Source: a virus
Length of the DNA: 64,000 nt
Reading direction: 5' to 3' (one strand)
Virus genome (UHGV): UHGV-1352853
Shown here: positions 1,724-32,833 of the stretch, one piece after another
Numbering within the stretch: the first letter of the stretch is position 1
How the letters are laid out: every line of letters begins with the position of its first letter
Program-made: the position numbers and the translations under genes
Notes under the pieces: model-generated
Seen by the model: only the letters and a program-made list of their open reading frames with translations
The model's database searches: none
Told to the model about the DNA's origin: nothing

Positions 1724-4299
1724 GCGAATGCCTTTTGAATTGTTTGATGAACTTCTTCTGGGGTAGCGTGATTTGGAATTTCAATCTCGTTAGCCCACGT
1801 TGGGTAGAACAAGGATAGTTCCCCACCCAAACCAACTTCTGGGTGAGCAATATCAGGGTGGTCTTGCCAGTTAACAGCCTCAACCAAGTGCTTGTTCGTG
1901 TACTGCAAGGTATCCATGTTGTCACGAATCATGAAGTATTGGGCATCATGAATGTGAATACAAGGACGTATATCTAACCTGAACTCACTGGTTCTGACTT
2001 TACGCATAAACTCTGAGCCAGCACGGTTATTCAGTAGACACCAGCTTTGGCCCAATGCATTACCAGCAGTCCTGCCTTCTGCTTCTGCTTCATATGGAGT
2101 CTTGCATGTCCCACGTAAAACCTGAGCCAGTAAAGGAGTACGGACTCTCAAACCAAATGCAGCAGTTACATAACCAGTTTTAGCAGCTTCGTCTAGCTTA
2201 GCCTGAACCCAGGCATCACTAACTACATAGAGGTCGTGATAACGTTTCTCTGTGAGTTTTGCTTTCTCTTCAGAGAAGCCACAGTTTTTCATTAAGCCCA
2301 TATACGTACCACCATAGGTAAGCAGGAAGGTTGGAGCCTTCGAGTCACTACGTAGTGATTTGTACTTATGCTGAATGGAGTTAATAGATTCTACCGTGTC
2401 TTCTATGTCTGGCATTTGCTCGCCAAAGTAAGCATACGCACGAAGACTATGACCATCATAACCATCGGTATATACCTTAAGCTTCTGTGGGTCTTTGGTA
2501 GTCAGTGCAGAAATTCTGTCTTCCAGCGAGGCGAAGTCCAAACCGCAAAATGCCCAGCCCGGTGGAGCTTCGAAGCATTTCTTAATCTTCTTGGCATATT
2601 TAGAACCGGATGGAATTGTTTGTAGATTAGGCTCTGAAGCCGATAACCTACCGGAGACTGTGCCACCAAGATTGAGGTTACCGAACAGGTAATGCCAGCC
2701 ATCCGGTCCCGGTTGGGCATTCCTGAAAGCTGGTATAAAGCTAGTGATAATCTTATCCACGAGCTTATAGTCGATAAGTGCATTAAGCAGTTCCTTAACG
2801 TCTTCACTTTGCGTATGCGTACGCAGTGCTTTAATAGTGTCACCGTCAGTAGCAGGTTGCTTGCTCTTAGTAAGCCCAAGAACCGGTAAGCCTATATAAT
2901 CAAATAACAATTTCTGTAGTTGTGGACCAGAGTTAGGATTAAACTCTATGTCACAATCAGCCAGGGTTACCTGCTTCTTTTTAAGCTTAGCATTCTTATC
3001 GTCTACCCATTCCTGACGAAGCATCAGGGTGAAATTCTTCATGAGCTTGGACTCACGAATAGTTTTCAGTGCCTGGTTCCTGTCAGTTTCCATTTCCTCA
3101 GCTACTTGGTTAACGGTATCCATATTCATAGGCATACCGGTTAACTGCATCTGGATGATGTCTTCGCAAGCTGGCTTAAAGATGTTGTTATAAACATCTA
3201 GTTGGTCATCAGCAATGAGAGTATCCCAGTGCTTCTCGTAGGTGTACCAGGTACACAAACCGTCAATGAGGTTATAACGTAATAGCTGCTCATTAGGAAT
3301 AAGACGAATGTCTTTAATATCATCCTGAGCATAGTTACCAGCATACTCCTGAGCCTGGTCTTTCAGACTAAGGTGATTACCAGCACAGCTGTTAGTAGCC
3401 AGATAAGTGATTAACTTAGTACAGTCCCAGTTACGTAGCATGATTTCCATGCCATGCAGTAAGCCTTCTGTATCAATCAGGTTATCCATGAATAACTGAT
3501 AGATAAGCACATAAACGTCATAGCTAATGTTGTGATACATCTGCCGTTGAGTGTACTTAATGAAGAACTCACGCAGAAGATTTCGAACAATATCATTTCT
3601 GTTGATACGCCCGTATGGTGCTTCTGTAGCTCCAGGAATCGGCTCGTAGTCCACATTAAAGGCTATGCCTTGTGTCTTACTCCAACAGAACGTAATTGTT
3701 CCTATACCTGCGTTATAGTGCTTTAAACCAAATGATTCGATGTCTATAGCTAAAGGCTTATTCATCTCAAGCAACTGGTCTAGCCAAGCTTTAATCTTCT
3801 CTGGAGTATCTGGGTAGGCTTCAAACTCAATGATTCCCTGACCTGGTTCAGCATACTGTCCACGTATATGGTTAATTAATGCATCCATACCTTGAGCAAT
3901 CTTGGATTTCACTACAGGTGGGTCATAAAAGACCTGTCTGTAACTAGGCGTATAGATAACCTTCTGTTTACCCCATACTGAATCACAAACGTAGCCTAGA
4001 TTAGCCTCTGCTTTAGCTTCTTTAGTCAGTATTTTGAAGTAGTCAGAATCGGTACAGATAATGTACTGAGTCTCTGCATCATCCAGTACTTGTTGCAGTT
4101 CCTGCTGTATGAACTCCTTAATCTCCCTTGCAGGTGTCTTCTTTTTGCCTGGGGCAGAATGAAGCTCAATGAAGATGAAATCTTCCATGCTTAGGTCATT
4201 AGGCAGCAGGTAGGTTTTAATCATCTCCTCCCTTCGGATTTGATGACCGAGGATAGCAATAGGATACTTACCCGTATCTTGAGAGGTGATGTAACGCAT
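1720..4299 (-). CDS. DNA polymerase, family A (Pol I-like), 859 aa
   Basis: Motif A-like DFASLEDRI, motif B-like RSDSKAPTFLLTYGG (K...F...YG), motif C-like IHIHDAQ. Size and position match the N4-like replicative polymerase. Confidence 0.9.
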   Translation of the reverse strand: MRYITSQDTGKYPIAILGHQIRREEMIKTYLLPNDLSMEDFIFIELHSAPGKKKTPAREIKEFIQQELQQVLDDAETQYIICTDSDYFKILTKEAKAEANLGYVCDSVWGKQKVIYTPSYRQVFYDPPVVKSKIAQGMDALINHIRGQYAEPGQGIIEFEAYPDTPEKIKAWLDQLLEMNKPLAIDIESFGLKHYNAGIGTITFCWSKTQGIAFNVDYEPIPGATEAPYGRINRNDIVRNLLREFFIKYTQRQMYHNISYDVYVLIYQLFMDNLIDTEGLLHGMEIMLRNWDCTKLITYLATNSCAGNHLSLKDQAQEYAGNYAQDDIKDIRLIPNEQLLRYNLIDGLCTWYTYEKHWDTLIADDQLDVYNNIFKPACEDIIQMQLTGMPMNMDTVNQVAEEMETDRNQALKTIRESKLMKNFTLMLRQEWVDDKNAKLKKKQVTLADCDIEFNPNSGPQLQKLLFDYIGLPVLGLTKSKQPATDGDTIKALRTHTQSEDVKELLNALIDYKLVDKIITSFIPAFRNAQPGPDGWHYLFGNLNLGGTVSGRLSASEPNLQTIPSGSKYAKKIKKCFEAPPGWAFCGLDFASLEDRISALTTKDPQKLKVYTDGYDGHSLRAYAYFGEQMPDIEDTVESINSIQHKYKSLRSDSKAPTFLLTYGGTYMGLMKNCGFSEEKAKLTEKRYHDLYVVSDAWVQAKLDEAAKTGYVTAAFGLRVRTPLLAQVLRGTCKTPYEAEAEGRTAGNALGQSWCLLNNRAGSEFMRKVRTSEFRLDIRPCIHIHDAQYFMIRDNMDTLQYTNKHLVEAVNWQDHPDIAHPEVGLGGELSLFYPTWANEIEIPNHATPEEVHQTIQKAFA

Positions 4300-4308
4300 A
4301 GCTTTACC

Positions 4309-4839
4309 TTAGAAAATCAGATGGGAAGCTGCATAGTACTCAATAGAGGGAAGAATCTTCTCATACTGTTTTATTGCCATAGGATCACCAGCAAGTGTCC
4401 AGGCTGCTTCACGAGTACGTGGTAGTTCCTTGTACTTACCAGTCTGGTCCTGGGCTACCAGACATTCAGGTAAAGCATCACGTACATCCTGATAGGACAT
4501 ACAACCTCGAACCAGGCGATATACAGTCTGGTTCACAAGGTGTACTTCCATAATCAGACGACTGGAGGCTTTCAGATACTTGTCCATTGCAGGCCATAGT
4601 TCTGGATTAAGTGTTAATCGTTCACCGTAGGTTGGAGGTCTGGAAGCATTAGAACGCTGATAGAACTCTCCCTGATAAAGGAATCCAGCCGATACATCAA
4701 TACCATTGATACGGTCGTTCTTATCAATGATACCGTTTAACACATTATCAAGACGAACCAGTTCTGCTAAGAACAGGTGTTTGACTATCTCACTGCTATT
4801 GGCAACTTGACCAATAGTCGCTGAACCAATCTGAGGCAT
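4309..4839 (-). CDS. hypothetical protein (176 aa)
   Basis: ORF between the helicase and the polymerase, tightly packed. Confidence 0.5.
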   Translation of the reverse strand: MPQIGSATIGQVANSSEIVKHLFLAELVRLDNVLNGIIDKNDRINGIDVSAGFLYQGEFYQRSNASRPPTYGERLTLNPELWPAMDKYLKASSRLIMEVHLVNQTVYRLVRGCMSYQDVRDALPECLVAQDQTGKYKELPRTREAAWTLAGDPMAIKQYEKILPSIEYYAASHLIF

Positions 4840-4849
4840 ATATCCTCCC

Positions 4850-6160
4850 TTAGAAAGTTAGACCACCATACTTACTGGCAAGATTGCCATAGAACACTAC
4901 ACGCTTACGGGCACGAGATACAGCGACGTAAAGCAGACGGGCAACCATATCAGGTTGGCGACAGCTTGAGAGGTCATCTGCATCAATGAAGATTGTGTCG
5001 TAAGTAGAGCCTTGTGATTTATGGACAGTACATGCATGAGTAGCACGCAGGTCTGGAATGGTTTCTTTAAGACGGAAGTAAGGTTCCCAGTTCTTCTCTT
5101 TACCAAGCCACTTAACCAAACGGTTGAAGTATTCCGGGTCAGTAGGTACTGGAACTTCACTCACGATACCACCATAACCAAGGTCAAGAGTACTATCACG
5201 AACTTCCAGTTCCAGGTCACCTGTAACCTTAATCATGCGAGTACTACTATCCTGGTCAATGAGTTTTACGTCCTGCTCAATAGACAGACGATCTTCCACA
5301 CCTAAGCGAACAGCAGAGTTAGAGACTAGCTGTTCACCGATGGAGTATTCGCCCACATAGCCATTGGCTTCACGAATGTAGTTATTGTAATTAATAACCT
5401 GGTCATTTGTATAAGCAACAATACGGCTGTTGGTAGGTTGAGTGAAGTGACTGAGAACCAGTTTCTCCATCTCTTCTCCCTGTACCCAGTCAATGATGCC
5501 CGGAATACATTTAATAGGCAGGAAGCCTGTCTTACCCTCCACCGTATCACGCAATTGCTGGTGCAATGCTTTGAGTTCTGGTGCATCGGTACGCATCTGT
5601 TCAGTCAGATAGTGTGTTGGGATATTACCTGCATACACTGGAGACTTATTCTCTTTAACAGGCAGAAGCTGAGAAGCATCACCTACGAATACCAGTTTGC
5701 ACTGGTGAGTACCTTCACGAGCATACTTAAGTAACTGACGGTCAATCATGGATGCTTCATCTACGAAGATGATTTTGTTCTTCTTAATATTGAATGATTT
5801 AGACGGTACTACATTAGCCTCACCAGTCTTAAAGTCATTCTTAACAATCAATCCCTGGAAGGAATGATAGGTAGATGTTGGGCGTCCAGTAGCCTGAGCC
5901 AGAACTTCAGCAGCTTTGTTCGTGGTCGCAGTCATAACAACTTCATTATATAGAGGCTTGGTTCCCATGAGAGAACAAGTTTCCATATATGCAGGCATAG
6001 TGTCATCAATGAGGTGCGACATCAGGAATGTCTTGCCAGTTCCCCCAGGTCCACTAATATTGAATTCTGAGGCATTAGGGTCGAGCAGGAAGTCGAAGAA
6101 CTCCTTCGCAACCGCTTCTTGCCCCTTGTTCAGTGGGGCTTTGGTAGGTTTGGAAAACAT
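4850..6160 (-). CDS. SF1 DNA helicase (Dda/RecD-like), 436 aa
   Basis: Walker A GPGGTGKTF, Walker B FVDEASMI. Conserved C-terminal helicase motifs (TVHKSQGST...VAVSRAR). Confidence 0.85.
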   Translation of the reverse strand: MFSKPTKAPLNKGQEAVAKEFFDFLLDPNASEFNISGPGGTGKTFLMSHLIDDTMPAYMETCSLMGTKPLYNEVVMTATTNKAAEVLAQATGRPTSTYHSFQGLIVKNDFKTGEANVVPSKSFNIKKNKIIFVDEASMIDRQLLKYAREGTHQCKLVFVGDASQLLPVKENKSPVYAGNIPTHYLTEQMRTDAPELKALHQQLRDTVEGKTGFLPIKCIPGIIDWVQGEEMEKLVLSHFTQPTNSRIVAYTNDQVINYNNYIREANGYVGEYSIGEQLVSNSAVRLGVEDRLSIEQDVKLIDQDSSTRMIKVTGDLELEVRDSTLDLGYGGIVSEVPVPTDPEYFNRLVKWLGKEKNWEPYFRLKETIPDLRATHACTVHKSQGSTYDTIFIDADDLSSCRQPDMVARLLYVAVSRARKRVVFYGNLASKYGGLTF

Positions 6161-29116: not shown

Positions 29117-29440
29117 TTAGTCTTTAGTCAGGATGTCAATTACTTTTGAATATTCTGCGTTATAGATACGAGCGTTCTCAGAATCCTTACAGAAATCTTC
29201 AATACTTTTCTTACGCAGAGTCTCAGTCATAGCTGTTTCTTCAGCTAATTTATTAACGAATGTATGCATTTCTAATTTAGTACGAATGGCTTGTTTCTCT
29301 GCCATAGTACTTACATATGAATTAAGCATACCTACTGCTTTAGTTGCTGTACCAAATGTATCTGCAACAGTAGTAGCAGCAGAGTTAACAGTACCCAGTA
29401 AAGTTCCTGCGGTCATACGTACAGTAGCGGTAGTAGTCAT
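29117..29440 (-). CDS. hypothetical early protein (107 aa); first gene downstream of hairpin promoter (c)
   Basis: ORF. Confidence 0.5.
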   Translation of the reverse strand: MTTTATVRMTAGTLLGTVNSAATTVADTFGTATKAVGMLNSYVSTMAEKQAIRTKLEMHTFVNKLAEETAMTETLRKKSIEDFCKDSENARIYNAEYSKVIDILTKD

Positions 29441-29483
29441 GATGATAGCTCCAATAGTTGATGATAGGACGACATGTCCATAA

Positions 29484-29496
29484 GTTGCGGAGCAAC
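29484..29496. promoter_or_regulatory. vRNAP-type hairpin promoter (gttgc-GGA-gcaac), template strand; leftward transcription
   Basis: gtccataaGTTGC-GGA-GCAACgtgtaacg. Same flank consensus as promoters (a) and (b). Confidence 0.55.
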
Positions 29497-29600
29497 GTGT
29501 AACGTGTAAGGTGGGGTAGGGTAGTGGCTACACCGTCAACATACCGGGGGGGCTAGTTGAGTGTAAGGGTGTAGCCCCAGCCACAACACTGCTACTGTAC
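29497..29600. repeat. repeat-rich non-coding block (gtgtaa x3, ggtagggtag, 9 bp inverted repeat ggctacacc/ggtgtagcc) inside a 415 bp ORF-free region
   Basis: Seen directly. Lies immediately upstream of the first early promoter. Confidence 0.4.
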
Positions 29601-29855
29601 ATAGCTATCACAATTTTGACATGCAAAAATATTATAGGCACTATCTCTATAAGCAGATAACTTTGAGGTATTAACATGAAAGATGGATGGGGTAACTATC
29701 TCCTATTCATCATAGCGTTTAATACTTAAAACCTCATATAGCTTACTATTTACAAGCAATGGTCCACCTACTCCTACAAAAACTAGGCTGTGTACTATCA
29801 CTGGTTCAGGTAAGCCCTTTACTGTTACATACCACATATTAATCCTTATAAGCAG

Positions 29856-30194
29856 TTAAATAGGAAGGAGCTTTCTGGTGATGATGCGTGCTATACCAGA
29901 GTAATAGTCTGGATGGTTTGGATTACCACTACTATTTCTTACGGTAGCTTCTTTAATAAACACATGAGCATAATCACCTAATGGTATGAAGACTGACCCA
30001 CCTTTTTGCAGGATAACTATCTCTGCATTGCTGTTGGTAAGTAGCTTATGTCCTTGGGCAAAGTCTGCTAACTCTCCTGGTTCCATTATTAGTGTGGAGG
30101 TTCCATAGGTCATAATGTGGATGATTGCTTTTTCTGGTTCAGAGGAATAATGCAGTAAGTCCGTACCTTTCATCCCTAGGAGTTTAACGTTCAT
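29856..30194 (-). CDS. small protein, possible divergent member of the tandem paralogue family
   Basis: ORF of similar size, tightly packed with the family. Confidence 0.35.
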   Translation of the reverse strand: MNVKLLGMKGTDLLHYSSEPEKAIIHIMTYGTSTLIMEPGELADFAQGHKLLTNSNAEIVILQKGGSVFIPLGDYAHVFIKEATVRNSSGNPNHPDYYSGIARIITRKLLPI

Positions 30195-30197
30195 ACT

Positions 30198-30482
30198 TCA
30201 GTACCTTTCCTTATAGATGGGGGTGTTATCCTCGAATGATAGGATGTACTTGTCTGTATTAAGATGCCAAGGACTAAAGCTACCCTGCCAGGACATAGGT
30301 GTTCCTGGCTCAAGTAGATATACTTCTGCCTTCTTATTGTATAGGAAGAGTAATCCTTGTAGCTCATGCAAGGACTGTTCATCTGGAACCAGGATAAGTA
30401 CATCAGCACCTAGGTTAGCTACTTCTATATGGTGGGTGTATTCATCCCCTGGTAGCTCTGAATAAATTTTACTGATAACCAT
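30198..30482 (-). CDS. tandem paralogue family member (motif LVPDEQSLHELQGLLFL ... LLEP)
   Basis: Shares the VPxxExxxHE[LIV]xGxh[FL]L motif with 30800.., 31083.. and 31682... Confidence 0.5.
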   Translation of the reverse strand: MVISKIYSELPGDEYTHHIEVANLGADVLILVPDEQSLHELQGLLFLYNKKAEVYLLEPGTPMSWQGSFSPWHLNTDKYILSFEDNTPIYKERY

Positions 30483-30796
30483 TAATAGCTCTCGTCGCTA
30501 GATAAATATGAGGAAGGATAGAGGGTAATGAGTCTACCTGTAAGAGTAGTAGCTACCATAGGTTCACAGGAGGAGAAGATGTATACAGCGACACCCTCCG
30601 GAACTTCAATGGAAGTATCTATCCTAATAAAGGTAATAGGTGCACCTAACATTAAACAGGTTCCGATGAACTCATCTGCTTTTTCACATTGTTCATAGTA
30701 CATGGTCATGGGTTTACTTATTCCCAACCATGGAGATTTACCTACCCCCAGATTAAGGGGACAGGTACTACGACTACTTAAACCGTAGAAGTGCAT
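30482..30796 (-). CDS. tandem paralogue family member (degenerate motif YYEQCEKADEFIGTCLML)
   Basis: Motif alignment by eye. Confidence 0.4.
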   Translation of the reverse strand: MHFYGLSSRSTCPLNLGVGKSPWLGISKPMTMYYEQCEKADEFIGTCLMLGAPITFIRIDTSIEVPEGVAVYIFSSCEPMVATTLTGRLITLYPSSYLSSDESY

Positions 30797-30799
30797 GGC

Positions 30800-31180
30800 T
30801 TACTTCCTTACGTAATAGTAACGGTATTCGTCATTCTCATGGCGACTATCCCATTGGTATTCATCGGATACCATCATGAAAGGTAGAGCGTCATATGCAT
30901 CGCTAAAGGAGTAGACGGAAGGTGGGACAATACATACAACCTTACGGTCATTACCCGCTAAGAATAATTGGCCCCTTACTTCATGGTAGTCCTCTAAGGT
31001 AGGAACTAGGATTACTTGCTGGGGGTTGCTGTTCATGACTTCTTCTAGAGTGAAGTCAGTTGTATATATAGACCCCTCTTCTTCAGCAAAACTGGGGATG
31101 GTCATTATAAATTTCATGATTGATTTTCCTTCCTTTAGGGGTAGGTCTGAAGTAAATGGAAAGGGTTTTATTAAAGACAT
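30800..31180 (-). CDS. tandem paralogue family member (LVPTLEDYHEVRGQLFL); start uncertain
   Basis: The N-terminal block GSIYTTDFTLEEV aligns with MSIYAFDIDITGV of 31083..31481. The ORF-track start overlaps the upstream gene by 98 nt, so the true start is probably internal or non-ATG. Confidence 0.45.
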   Translation of the reverse strand: MSLIKPFPFTSDLPLKEGKSIMKFIMTIPSFAEEEGSIYTTDFTLEEVMNSNPQQVILVPTLEDYHEVRGQLFLAGNDRKVVCIVPPSVYSFSDAYDALPFMMVSDEYQWDSRHENDEYRYYYVRK

Positions 31181-31481
31181 TATGGGCAGCTATCAATTCC
31201 CAACCGGGTACTTTATAGAAACGTATACCAGGGAAGAACTCATTGAATCCGTCATAACGAGTGAGATCATACACCTTTGGTTCGGTAAGTATCTCGGTAT
31301 TGAGTTGTAGGTTTGATAAGAACAAAGAGCCAACAATCTCATGGGACTCTTCGCAGTTAGGTAAGAACACAGATTGCCATGGAGCAATGAACTTACTTAC
31401 TGCTTCTGGTTCCCCTAGTAGATAGGGTTCCTGCTTACGAAGTACTCCAGTAATATCAATATCAAAAGCGTAGATGCTCAT
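31083..31481 (-). CDS. tandem paralogue family member (LPNCEESHEIVGSLFL ... ILTEP)
   Basis: Motif alignment by eye. Confidence 0.5.
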   Translation of the reverse strand: MSIYAFDIDITGVLRKQEPYLLGEPEAVSKFIAPWQSVFLPNCEESHEIVGSLFLSNLQLNTEILTEPKVYDLTRYDGFNEFFPGIRFYKVPGWELIAAHNVFNKTLSIYFRPTPKGRKINHEIYNDHPQFC

Positions 31482-31489
31482 AATTGTAT

Positions 31490-31533
31490 ACCTCCAGAAA
31501 AAGAAATGGGGTAGAGCCTCTCGACCCTACCCC
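31490..31533 (-). terminator. candidate terminator (minus strand): GC-rich stem ggggtag/ctacccc followed by a U-rich tract
   Basis: Minus RNA ggggtagggucgagaggcucuaccccAUUUCUUUUUCUGG. Confidence 0.45.
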
Positions 31534-31681
31534 TTACCGTTTTCTATCACGGGTCAGTTCATCACCCTAGATACATATGTATCGTTAGCCTACTAGGTAG
31601 GAAAGGAGCCGGGTAACCCTGACTGTAGAAGTTATTAACTCTTTACGAGTACCGCCACTGTCTACTAGGCGGCATGACTAA

Positions 31682-31972
31682 TCACATCGTCACCATCATC
31701 CGAACGCTGTCTTTGTCTCGTCTGACAGAAACACTATGAGGTAATTTTGTGAATAACACAAGAGCAGATGCCTTCTTTTCTAAAGAGTAAGTTTCTCTTG
31801 GTTCTAAGATCTTAATGCCTGGACGATTCTCTAACAACATCATCCCAGCTAATTCATGGTAGGTATCTTCATTGTGTGTAATGATAATATCATCAGGGAG
31901 AATACCAGCTTTGGTATGGTCTACCTCTGCGTATTCATCCTTAGAGTCGTGGACTCTCATATAGATTCTCAA
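31682..31972 (-). CDS. tandem paralogue family member (ITHNEDTYHELAGMMLLEN ... ILEP)
   Basis: Motif alignment by eye. Confidence 0.5.
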   Translation of the reverse strand: MRIYMRVHDSKDEYAEVDHTKAGILPDDIIITHNEDTYHELAGMMLLENRPGIKILEPRETYSLEKKASALVLFTKLPHSVSVRRDKDSVRMMVTM

Positions 31973-32143
31973 AGGTTACTCCTTTTGGGAATAGGGTCAT
32001 CGGAACATTACATACTATTTAGTATCATGAACTTTTTCTATATCATGACTAAAGTGTAACTGTATGGTATCGTTTCTTCAAGGGGTATCTCACCCCAAGA
32101 AAAGAATCTTCTTTAATAGACATAACTTTGTAGCGAGATAAGT

Positions 32144-32833
32144 ATGAGTGAACTAACTAAGCAGCAGATTGTTAATGCCCTACCTGCTAATTTCAAGAAC
32201 AGTGTAACCCAGGAGTTGGTAGACACGATTAACAACATTACCCAAGACCAATTGGTTGCTGAAGCATTCCGTGAAAACTTTATCTCTTACTCCGGTGTTA
32301 TGAAGGAAGGTAAGTTTAAAACACAGGACTATATGAATGCAGTTCAGTATGTGACTTACAAACACATGGGCTACTCAAATAAAGAAGCCTACTTCAAAAC
32401 ATTCCCTAACCGACAAGCAGAACTTGTAGCACGAGGAACAAGTGAGAAAGATATTAGTGCTTATGTATCTGCTTACCACAGAGGTAAGTTAGTTAACCTC
32501 ATCATGGAACAAAGTTTGGTTCCAGTGTGGATTGTGAACCAGGATAACTATCAGAAGGCAATCAACGTTCAGGTTGAACTAATGACCACAGCAGCAAGTG
32601 AAAAGGTAAGATGTGATGCAGCTAACTCTATCCTTACTCACTTGGCTAAACCAAAAGACCAGGTAACGAATATCAATCTGGACTTGAGAGAGAACTCTGG
32701 GTTGACCGACCTCAAGGCAACACTTGCTGCATTGGCTGAACAGCAAATCAATGCAATCAATAGTGGAGTACCTACCAAAGAGATTGCTGGTTCTAAACTA
32801 GTACGTGCAGATGAGGACATTACAGATGTCTGA
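32144..32833 (+). CDS. putative terminase small subunit (229 aa), first gene of the rightward late operon
   Basis: Position immediately upstream of the large terminase. No diagnostic motif. Confidence 0.4.
   Translation: MSELTKQQIVNALPANFKNSVTQELVDTINNITQDQLVAEAFRENFISYSGVMKEGKFKTQDYMNAVQYVTYKHMGYSNKEAYFKTFPNRQAELVARGTSEKDISAYVSAYHRGKLVNLIMEQSLVPVWIVNQDNYQKAINVQVELMTTAASEKVRCDAANSILTHLAKPKDQVTNINLDLRENSGLTDLKATLAALAEQQINAINSGVPTKEIAGSKLVRADEDITDV

Follow-up and report, generated by a model that had tools for sequence, protein, structure and literature searches.

A tandem array of small genes was examined in the 64,000-nucleotide (nt) viral genome UHGV-1352853 (the whole stretch analysed, referred to here as the window), and its six genes, A to F, appear to be paralogues that have diverged within a single family of small, soluble alpha/beta proteins encoded by N4-like phages. 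By sequence comparison, genes A, B, C, and E are certainly homologous; the membership of F is well supported by its link to A and by a structure-search match list that largely repeats the one obtained for E; and D is probably a remote member of an F-like subgroup. The six tightly packed open reading frames (ORFs) fill positions 29856 to 31972 on the minus strand, and a seventh gene, G, lies downstream. The genes, with lengths in amino acids (aa), their shared motifs, and their matches to the PHROG families of phage proteins, are as follows:

Gene A, 31682-31972, minus strand: 96 aa with a TTG start; motif IIITHNEDTYHELAGMMLLEN...KILEP; orthologue of N4 gp70; PHROG 7213 (E-value 1.7e-42).
Gene B, 31083-31481, minus strand: 132 aa; motif FLPNCEESHEIVGSLFLSN...EILTEP; N4 gp71-like; PHROG 9160 (E-value 1.9e-63).
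Gene C, 30800-31117, minus strand: 105 aa; motif VILVPTLEDYHEVRGQLFLAGN...VVCIVPPS; PHROG 11661, matching residues 22-126 of the longest ORF.
Gene D, 30482-30796, minus strand: 104 aa; degenerate motif YYEQCEKADEFIGTCLMLGAPITFIRIDTSIEVPEG; PHROG 12099.
Gene E, 30198-30482, minus strand: 94 aa; motif LILVPDEQSLHELQGLLFLYNKKAEVYLLEPG; PHROG 16338; the central family member.
Gene F, 29856-30194, minus strand: 112 aa; motif TLIMEPGELADFAQGHKLLTNSNAEIVILQKGG; PHROG 12606; a divergent member.
Gene G, 29703-29837, minus strand: 44 aa; the N4 gp72 orthologue, outside the family; the last gene of the putative operon; PHROG 19797 (E-value 4.9e-28).

A preliminary description of this DNA had reported six ORFs at these positions, their motif strings, and an SIY[TA]xD block common to B and C; the ORFs were found to be present on the minus strand, and both the motif strings and the block had been read correctly. 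Plausible ribosome-binding sites were identified for all array genes, and B to G were found to be tightly packed, with an overlap of 35 nt between B and C and of 1 nt between the stop codon of D and the start codon of E. The longest ORF of gene C spans 31180-30800; its start was corrected to M22 (31117), which is almost certainly the true start since it is preceded by a good ribosome-binding site (AAGGAAGGA) and is the residue at which the PHROG 11661 profile begins. Ratios of nonsynonymous to synonymous substitution rates (dN/dS) of 0.09 to 0.47, together with the ribosome-binding sites and the overlapping stop and start codons, indicate that the ORFs are real genes. Gene G was found to align with N4 gp72 and gave no score against the family models described below.

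Pairwise single-sequence BLAST between the array proteins returned only modest scores of 22-35 bits, which is what a reading of the motif similarity as chance or compositional, with ORFs that are not homologous or not genes, has in its favor. Profiles were built with orthologues from 12 related loci and three protein searches; a mixed-family word-indexed protein search gave matches limited to E-type and Achromobacter proteins. Hidden Markov models (HMMs), each omitting one of the six gene families, were run on the complete set of 357 six-frame ORFs from the window and recovered five of the six omitted genes (A, E-value 1.3e-7; B, 2.4e-6; C, 1.4e-8; E, 3.1e-10; and F, 4.1e-4), with the best decoy in the recovering runs at an E-value of at least 0.1. 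No family member was detected elsewhere in the window when these 357 ORFs were scanned with the family HMMs. Cross-matches between the PHROG families were also observed, including those of C to the family of E (PHROG 16338, E-value 7.7e-5), of A to the family of E (E-value 3e-3), and of C to the family of B (E-value 0.02). Profile-profile alignment with hhalign gave values of 86-97% along the chain B-C-E-A-F. The pairs, which include F′, a tandem paralogue of F at 35-40% identity that occurs in relatives, were scored as follows:

C and E: 97.4%, E-value 1e-11.
A and E: 95.1%, E-value 3.1e-8.
F′ and A: 92.3%, E-value 5.6e-7.
A and F: 88.7%, E-value 2.5e-6.
A and C: 87.2%, E-value 3.9e-6.
B and C: 86.5%, E-value 4.6e-6.
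B and E: 36.5%, E-value 3.7e-4.
D and F, and D and F′: 22-26%, E-values of about 7e-4 to 9e-4.

For all nine pairs tested against 40 column-shuffled controls, the real profile-profile score exceeded the maximum of the controls; the weakest of these pairs were D-F and B-E, the latter with a score of 26.7 versus a shuffle maximum of 21.5. The claim of tandem paralogous small genes with a shared motif was thus borne out by the leave-one-out HMMs and the shuffle-controlled alignments, with D only probable, and the significant common HMM for A, B, C, E, and F refutes chance similarity. With the overlapping structure-match lists, the purifying selection, and the ribosome-binding sites also standing against it, an origin of the motif by chance is barely credible.

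The exception was gene D, which the leave-one-out HMM failed to recover (E-value 6.2). This result, the lack of PHROG cross-matches for D, and hhalign values of at most 1% between D and each of A, B, C, and E are what would be expected if only A, B, C, E, and F were paralogous and D were an unrelated gene within the array, its degenerate motif being coincidental. Counter to this, D and F/F′ were found to be mutual best non-self HMM matches (E-values of 0.005 to 0.19), and the D-F alignment covered 62-74 columns at 27% identity with an hhalign score of 24.8, compared with a shuffle mean of 11.6 (standard deviation 2.3) and maximum of 16, thus placing it 5-6 standard deviations above the shuffles. 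The segment that aligns is again the strand-helix-strand core and takes in the invariant Gly. We consider an unrelated D somewhat doubtful and D probably a remote member of the F-like subgroup.

Structure models were made for E and F, with the F model used solely for comparison of match lists. The AlphaFold2 model of E, generated from a 38-sequence family alignment, predicted a small alpha/beta fold with high scores (predicted local distance difference test [pLDDT] 90.0; predicted template modeling score [pTM] 0.79). The predicted elements follow the order b-b-b-a-b-b-b, with a beta-hairpin at residues 2-20, a strand at 29-32, a helix at 35-47, a strand at 53-56, a long loop, and a second beta-hairpin at 79-92. 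When placed on this model, the shared motif was found to form the core, in which (i) hhLVP is a buried strand; (ii) xxExxHEhxGxhhL is the helix, with the near-invariant Gly43 inside it; and (iii) EVxLLEPG is the second strand; prolines cap the strands. The model of F was of low confidence (pLDDT 61) and presented the same central strand-helix-strand. Searches of the BFVD viral structure library with the E model returned small uncharacterized proteins as all of the top 26 matches; those named by organism were all from N4-like phages (of Escherichia, Klebsiella, Achromobacter, and Pseudomonas), often with several per phage. The top 19 matches of the F model were likewise all small proteins of N4-like phages, at least 15 of which also match the E model, including orthologues of E. 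A profile search of PDB sequences gave no match, and Pfam and NCBIfam yielded nothing usable for the array proteins, save a subthreshold match of F to Cupin_3.

Two functional assignments were considered and rejected. That F is a cupin was suggested by the Cupin_3 match (PF05899; 14.5 bits, E-value 0.029, below the Pfam gathering threshold of 23.5 bits) and by a string resembling G-x5-P-x-G; the double-stranded beta-helix barrel of cupins was not found, and in the models a helix occupies the position of strands in a cupin. That the proteins are acidic DNA mimics was dismissed because isoelectric points extend from 4.4 to 7.0 in the window and reach 8.8 in the Achromobacter phage Axy10, with no consistent charge signature.

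The family was found to be small, with about two dozen clusters at 50% identity. When 1.84 billion representative proteins were searched exhaustively by HMM at an E-value of ≤0.001, 26 clusters were returned. Among the 19 new clusters that were read, 18 represent proteins of 54-132 aa with the motif, and the other (P0080, 435 aa) is repetitive and looks spurious; a further match with 11 short matched stretches (P0078, 1450 aa) lay outside the 19. Every member that was placed comes from an N4-like phage, and the family is regarded as phage-specific. Copy number was found to be two in N4, four in G7C, and six in the window. Six members were also found in Axy10, which belongs to a different subfamily (Rothmandenesvirinae), at the same locus and followed by a 404-base-pair (bp) terminal repeat, while phage Moo19 carries at least three members within the 1.8 kb examined, including a further gp4-like subtype. 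This subtype (VHPDIDxHxxQGxxLLxGKxAxLxECPxNYRIK) was observed in P0059 (122 aa), at positions 3618-4007 of locus L011, and at 1288-1563 of the Moo19 locus (L017), where it is gp4. P0059 resembles a chimera, its first 60 residues being E-type up to the conserved LLEPG and the remainder belonging to the gp4-like subtype, which suggests recombination between paralogues inside the conserved motif.

In N4, the gp70 and gp71 proteins were both significant against the family HMMs (E-values of 1e-5 to 1e-7 for gp71) and are, on these profile matches, a two-copy version of the family. Genes A and B are the orthologues of gp70 and gp71, respectively, with the same order, orientation, spacer of about 200 nt, and position between gp69 and the genome end; N4 differs in having only gp70, gp71, and gp72, whereas the window has four more family genes (C to F). 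The literature search found no published statement on the paralogy or role of N4 gp70 and gp71, and nothing relevant on the function of gp70, gp71, and gp72 or on N4 transcriptomes. In PHROG, each window gene matches one of six families, all of "unknown function" (7213, 9160, 11661, 12099, 16338, and 12606; E-values of about 1e-42 or better); PHROG keeps these six separate, whereas the present analysis merges at least five into one superfamily.

A comparable expansion is present in phage LUZ7, where 29 small ORFans (gp87 to gp115) run divergently from a gp69-like gene and immediately precede the right terminal repeat (PMC3715699); this right-end cluster is covered by middle-phase transcripts (PMC9163698). 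The locus is the same as in the window, and in both phages one family of small proteins has been expanded in tandem; the LUZ7 family, in contrast, is unrelated, of about 65 aa, predicted by eye to be helical, and marked by the motif LLxxKYxKE. The 29 LUZ7 ORFs were considered as members and rejected, as they gave no score against the family HMM; the resemblance is one of genome architecture and not of ancestry. Most of the 29 (locus L018, 5699-11346) were seen by eye to form one paralogous family with the motif hxxhhLxxKYxKE; the original description of LUZ7 reported no recognizable features in these ORFs.

The genomic position of the array was examined next to that of its relatives. About 59 phage genomes, nearly all of them Gamaleyavirus, were found to be 85-92% identical to the region 29500-32200. 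The window represents the genome, in circularly permuted form, of a Gamaleyavirus (family Schitoviridae), a G7C-like phage related to coliphage N4. In phage Mimir124, a 403-bp direct terminal repeat follows the same array; the PhAPEC5 record stops at the stop codon of the last array gene, and its first two array genes are annotated as N4 gp70- and gp71-like. The N4 order is gp69 (divergent), gp70, a gap of 210 nt, gp71, gp72, and the genome end. In the window, the array reads on the minus strand from a divergent gp69-like gene (32144, plus strand) toward the right direct terminal repeat, the segment of which lies at about 29183-29585 when mapped from the annotated repeat of Mimir124. This places the array at the right end of the genome, with the divergent gp69-like/terminase genes on one side and the right direct terminal repeat on the other. 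One further element falls inside the terminal-repeat segment and hence at the left genome end:

Hairpin GTTGC-TCC-GCAAC, 29481-29498, minus strand: the element previously taken as the first early promoter.

The preliminary description had placed the array upstream of this first hairpin promoter, which holds in window coordinates and is merely an effect of the circularly permuted assembly. The left end of the N4 genome is injected first, so the right-end DNA enters the cell last (PMC4496689). As the array is at the right end, it would be the last DNA to enter the cell and would lie outside the early region of the virion RNA polymerase, where takeover genes are expected; an assignment of the array to an early or takeover region is thus at odds with the Mimir124 and PhAPEC5 maps and the published order of injection.

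Comparison of gene content among the related phages revealed that copy number and cassette content differ even between close relatives, in agreement with an earlier proposal of a lineage-specific paralogous expansion at a phage genome end:

N4: A-B-G.
G7C: A-B-C-D (ending at D).
UHGV-1352853 (the window): A-B-C-D-E-F-G.
PhAPEC5: A-B-C-D-E-F.
Mimir124 and IME11: A-B-C-D-F′-F.
pSb-1 type: A-B-C-D-F′-E′-G.

The A-B-C-D block was found to be stable in Gamaleyaviruses, with the distal E, E′, F, F′, G, and Moo19 gp4-like type variable. The DNA motif CCTTCCT(CCT)ATTTAACTGCTTATAAG terminates whichever array gene is the last in a given phage, and does so in differing reading frames; across the relatives, genes that end in it include F, E′, D, a 129-aa member, and an unrelated HExxH ORF. 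Two copies were located in the window:

Boundary motif CCTTCCT(CCT)ATTTAACTGCTTATAAGG, 29844-29870, minus strand: 3′ end of the last family gene.
Degenerate copy TTATCTGCTTATAGAG, 29645-29660, minus strand: detected as a repeat; four matches versus 1.0 expected.

Gene G is bracketed by direct repeats that are 199 nt apart, and phages without G carry a single copy. The boundary motif is probably, as read from these alignments, a recombination junction for the gain and loss of cassettes. Phage accessory small-gene islands are swapped at short conserved boundary sequences, and the array is like them in its small genes, in presence or absence that varies between close relatives, and in a conserved junction at the cassette ends; it is unlike them in that no match to the models of PADLOC-DB was found and in that early-acting factors are not typically located at the end injected last. 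No residual DNA similarity or repeats between the paralogues that would point to recent duplication were found, only the short boundary motifs.

Several side observations concern the same boundaries. The motif was also seen at L009 1222-1237 and in loci L005 to L008, L011, and L012, and the 3′ end of D (about 30500-30520) resembles a decayed third copy. Gene G (MWYxTVKGLxEPV...KLYEVxSI) is a real micro-gene under purifying selection that is present or absent as its own cassette. In the more distant relative L012, the array after A is replaced (4756-5079) by a 107-aa ORF that has an HELNH sequence (HExxH, zincin-like) and ends in the boundary motif, and a 39-aa truncated C-like remnant (about 5150-5270) directly follows the leader RNA region described below.

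Pairwise dN/dS values of the array genes versus their orthologues were 0.09-0.47 and mostly 0.1-0.35 (A, 0.14-0.34; B, 0.09-0.23; D, 0.15-0.47; G, 0.18-0.36), compared with 0.01-0.07 for the neighboring gp69-like gene, such that the array genes are about 10-fold more relaxed. Gene-wide, the array genes are, by these estimates, under purifying selection, relatively fast-evolving, and well below a dN/dS of 1; the diversifying selection proposed in the preliminary description is not what these values indicate. Small, variable, multicopy genes of unknown function at a genome end are typical of takeover and anti-defense arsenals, and a rival reading, built on the preliminary description, is that of an immediate-early host-takeover or anti-defense arsenal under diversifying selection. 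The differences in cassette content between close relatives and an evolution about ten times faster than that of the gp69-like gene are also in keeping with such an arsenal. The gene-wide dN/dS of 0.1-0.35 is not, nor is a location at the last-injected end, beyond the reach of the injected virion RNA polymerase (PMC4496689). In addition, none of the seven proteins A to G matched a defense or defense-associated model of PADLOC-DB at an E-value of ≤1. An immediate-early arsenal is quite unlikely on this evidence; a later-acting anti-defense role is possible and is folded into the account that we favor below.

The transcription signal of the array had been described as unidentified, and candidates have now been found upstream of A (a sigma70-like promoter) and before B (a leader with a terminator):

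Candidate promoter for A, 32053-32096, minus strand: a hairpin, then TTGAAG-N17-TACACT, as read from the sequence.
Structured noncoding A-B spacer, 31482-31681, minus strand: core at 31625-31495.

The candidate promoter consists of a hairpin with a 5-bp stem (GGGGTgagatACCCC, 32096-32082), directly followed by TTGAAG (32081-32076), a spacer of 17 nt, and TACACT (32058-32053). It agrees with the sigma70 consensus at 8 of 12 positions and falls under the threshold of the promoter scanner. The block was found to be almost invariant in eight Gamaleyavirus-type loci, and N4 has the version TTGCAG-N17-TAGACT with the same hairpin. Within the intergenic block between the gp69-like gene and A (32043-32110), the hairpin was observed to be flanked by a pyrimidine run and the sigma70-like elements.

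The spacer between A and B is closed by an intrinsic terminator (31533-31508, plus a U-run), and the Shine-Dalgarno sequence of B follows about 12 nt later. This spacer was 93-98.5% identical in 57 phage records versus 84-92% for the flanking region. RNAalifold predicted a multihairpin structure of 49 pairs, 17 of which have compensatory changes. A covariance model of the spacer (R1), built from six sequences, had matches in G7C, Moo19, and L012; the L014 match was weaker (26 bits, E-value 5e-5), and the N4 match, located where the element would be expected, was weak (15 bits, E-value 0.036). The corresponding positions are L016 3365-3574 (N4), L017 about 40-263 (Moo19), L012 5275-5543, and L014 2851-2968. 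No Rfam 15 family matched 31482-31681 at an E-value of ≤1, and no tRNA or tmRNA was found there. A covarying conserved structure that ends in a terminator directly upstream of a gene is what is expected of an attenuator or riboswitch leader, and the spacer could be an attenuator, a riboswitch-like leader, or a stable small RNA.

In the account that we favor (one family, cassette remodeling, read-through expression, and accessory binding modules), and in which we have about even confidence when it is taken as a whole, the array would have grown by duplication and would now be remodeled by the gain and loss of cassettes at the conserved DNA junction after the last gene, because A-B-C-D is stable while the distal genes vary. 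Gene A would be transcribed from the conserved sigma70-like promoter beside the divergent packaging genes, and transcription would then cross the structured leader with its strong terminator just before B. Genes B to G would form one translationally coupled operon that is made only upon read-through of this terminator. Expression would be middle or late, and not immediate-early, because the array is the last DNA into the cell, with the middle-phase transcripts of LUZ7 as an analogy. The proteins may be nonenzymatic binding modules on a common scaffold, which is the least certain step; A and B would perform a conserved job, and the variable distal copies may be accessory and probably host-directed factors. 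This assignment of binding modules with accessory, possibly host-directed roles was made because the proteins are small, soluble, and without catalytic signatures, and because their copy number varies and their cassettes are exchanged.

Several points weigh against parts of this account: (i) the helix has a conserved His-Glu pair, which could point to a catalytic or metal-binding role rather than pure binding; (ii) A is conserved across unrelated hosts (Escherichia coli and Achromobacter), which argues for a phage-intrinsic role of A; (iii) the membership of D in the family is weak; (iv) the predicted structure of F is of low confidence, as noted above; (v) the promoter block could instead, or also, serve the divergent gp69-like gene; and (vi) R1 was not detected in Axy10 at an E-value of ≤10, despite a resemblance in architecture by eye.

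Alternatively, the family could act not on host targets but in a process intrinsic to the phage and tied to the genome end; the start or stop of packaging, the protection or processing of terminal-repeat DNA, and replication that begins at the ends are examples. In three subfamilies with different hosts, the array always has the gp69-like/terminase genes on one side and the right terminal repeat on the other; orthologues of A are recognizable in N4, L012, and Axy10; A and B are conserved across hosts; and all copies are under purifying selection, each of which is consistent with such a process. A copy number of 2-6 and distal cassettes that are swapped freely between near-identical phages would, however, be unusual for core machinery, and the unrelated 29-copy family of LUZ7 at the same locus suggests a permissive slot rather than a functional neighborhood. 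Moreover, no nucleic-acid-binding fold or motif was detected in the array proteins. We regard a phage-intrinsic role of the family as unlikely. A more speculative extension, and in our estimation a long shot, is that the A-B spacer represents a new class of cis-regulatory RNA, riboswitch-like or a factor-dependent attenuator, that senses a condition of the infected cell and releases the B to G effectors, a variable set sharing one scaffold, solely on demand, as a conditional counter-defense or host-manipulation module peculiar to N4-like phages.

Overall, the array is a solid yet fairly ordinary expansion of accessory genes at a phage genome end, and is a well-founded lead rather than a discovery; among the by-products, the conserved leader RNA holds the most promise. 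Nonetheless, the analysis joins five, and probably six, phage protein families of "unknown function" and N4 gp70 and gp71 into one superfamily, with a confident predicted fold that, to judge from the E model and the profile search of PDB sequences, resembles nothing solved. The results further suggest that the slot that precedes the right terminal repeat in N4-like phages is a hotspot of remodeling that has been repeatedly filled by lineage-specific tandem expansions, e.g., by the family studied here in phages of Escherichia, Shigella, and Achromobacter, and by an unrelated 29-copy family in LUZ7. At this slot, the junction motif may explain how cassettes are exchanged, and the structured leader may control the genes of the array. 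As Gamaleyaviruses are used in therapeutic phage work, knowing the variable accessory cargo of their right genome end has some practical value.

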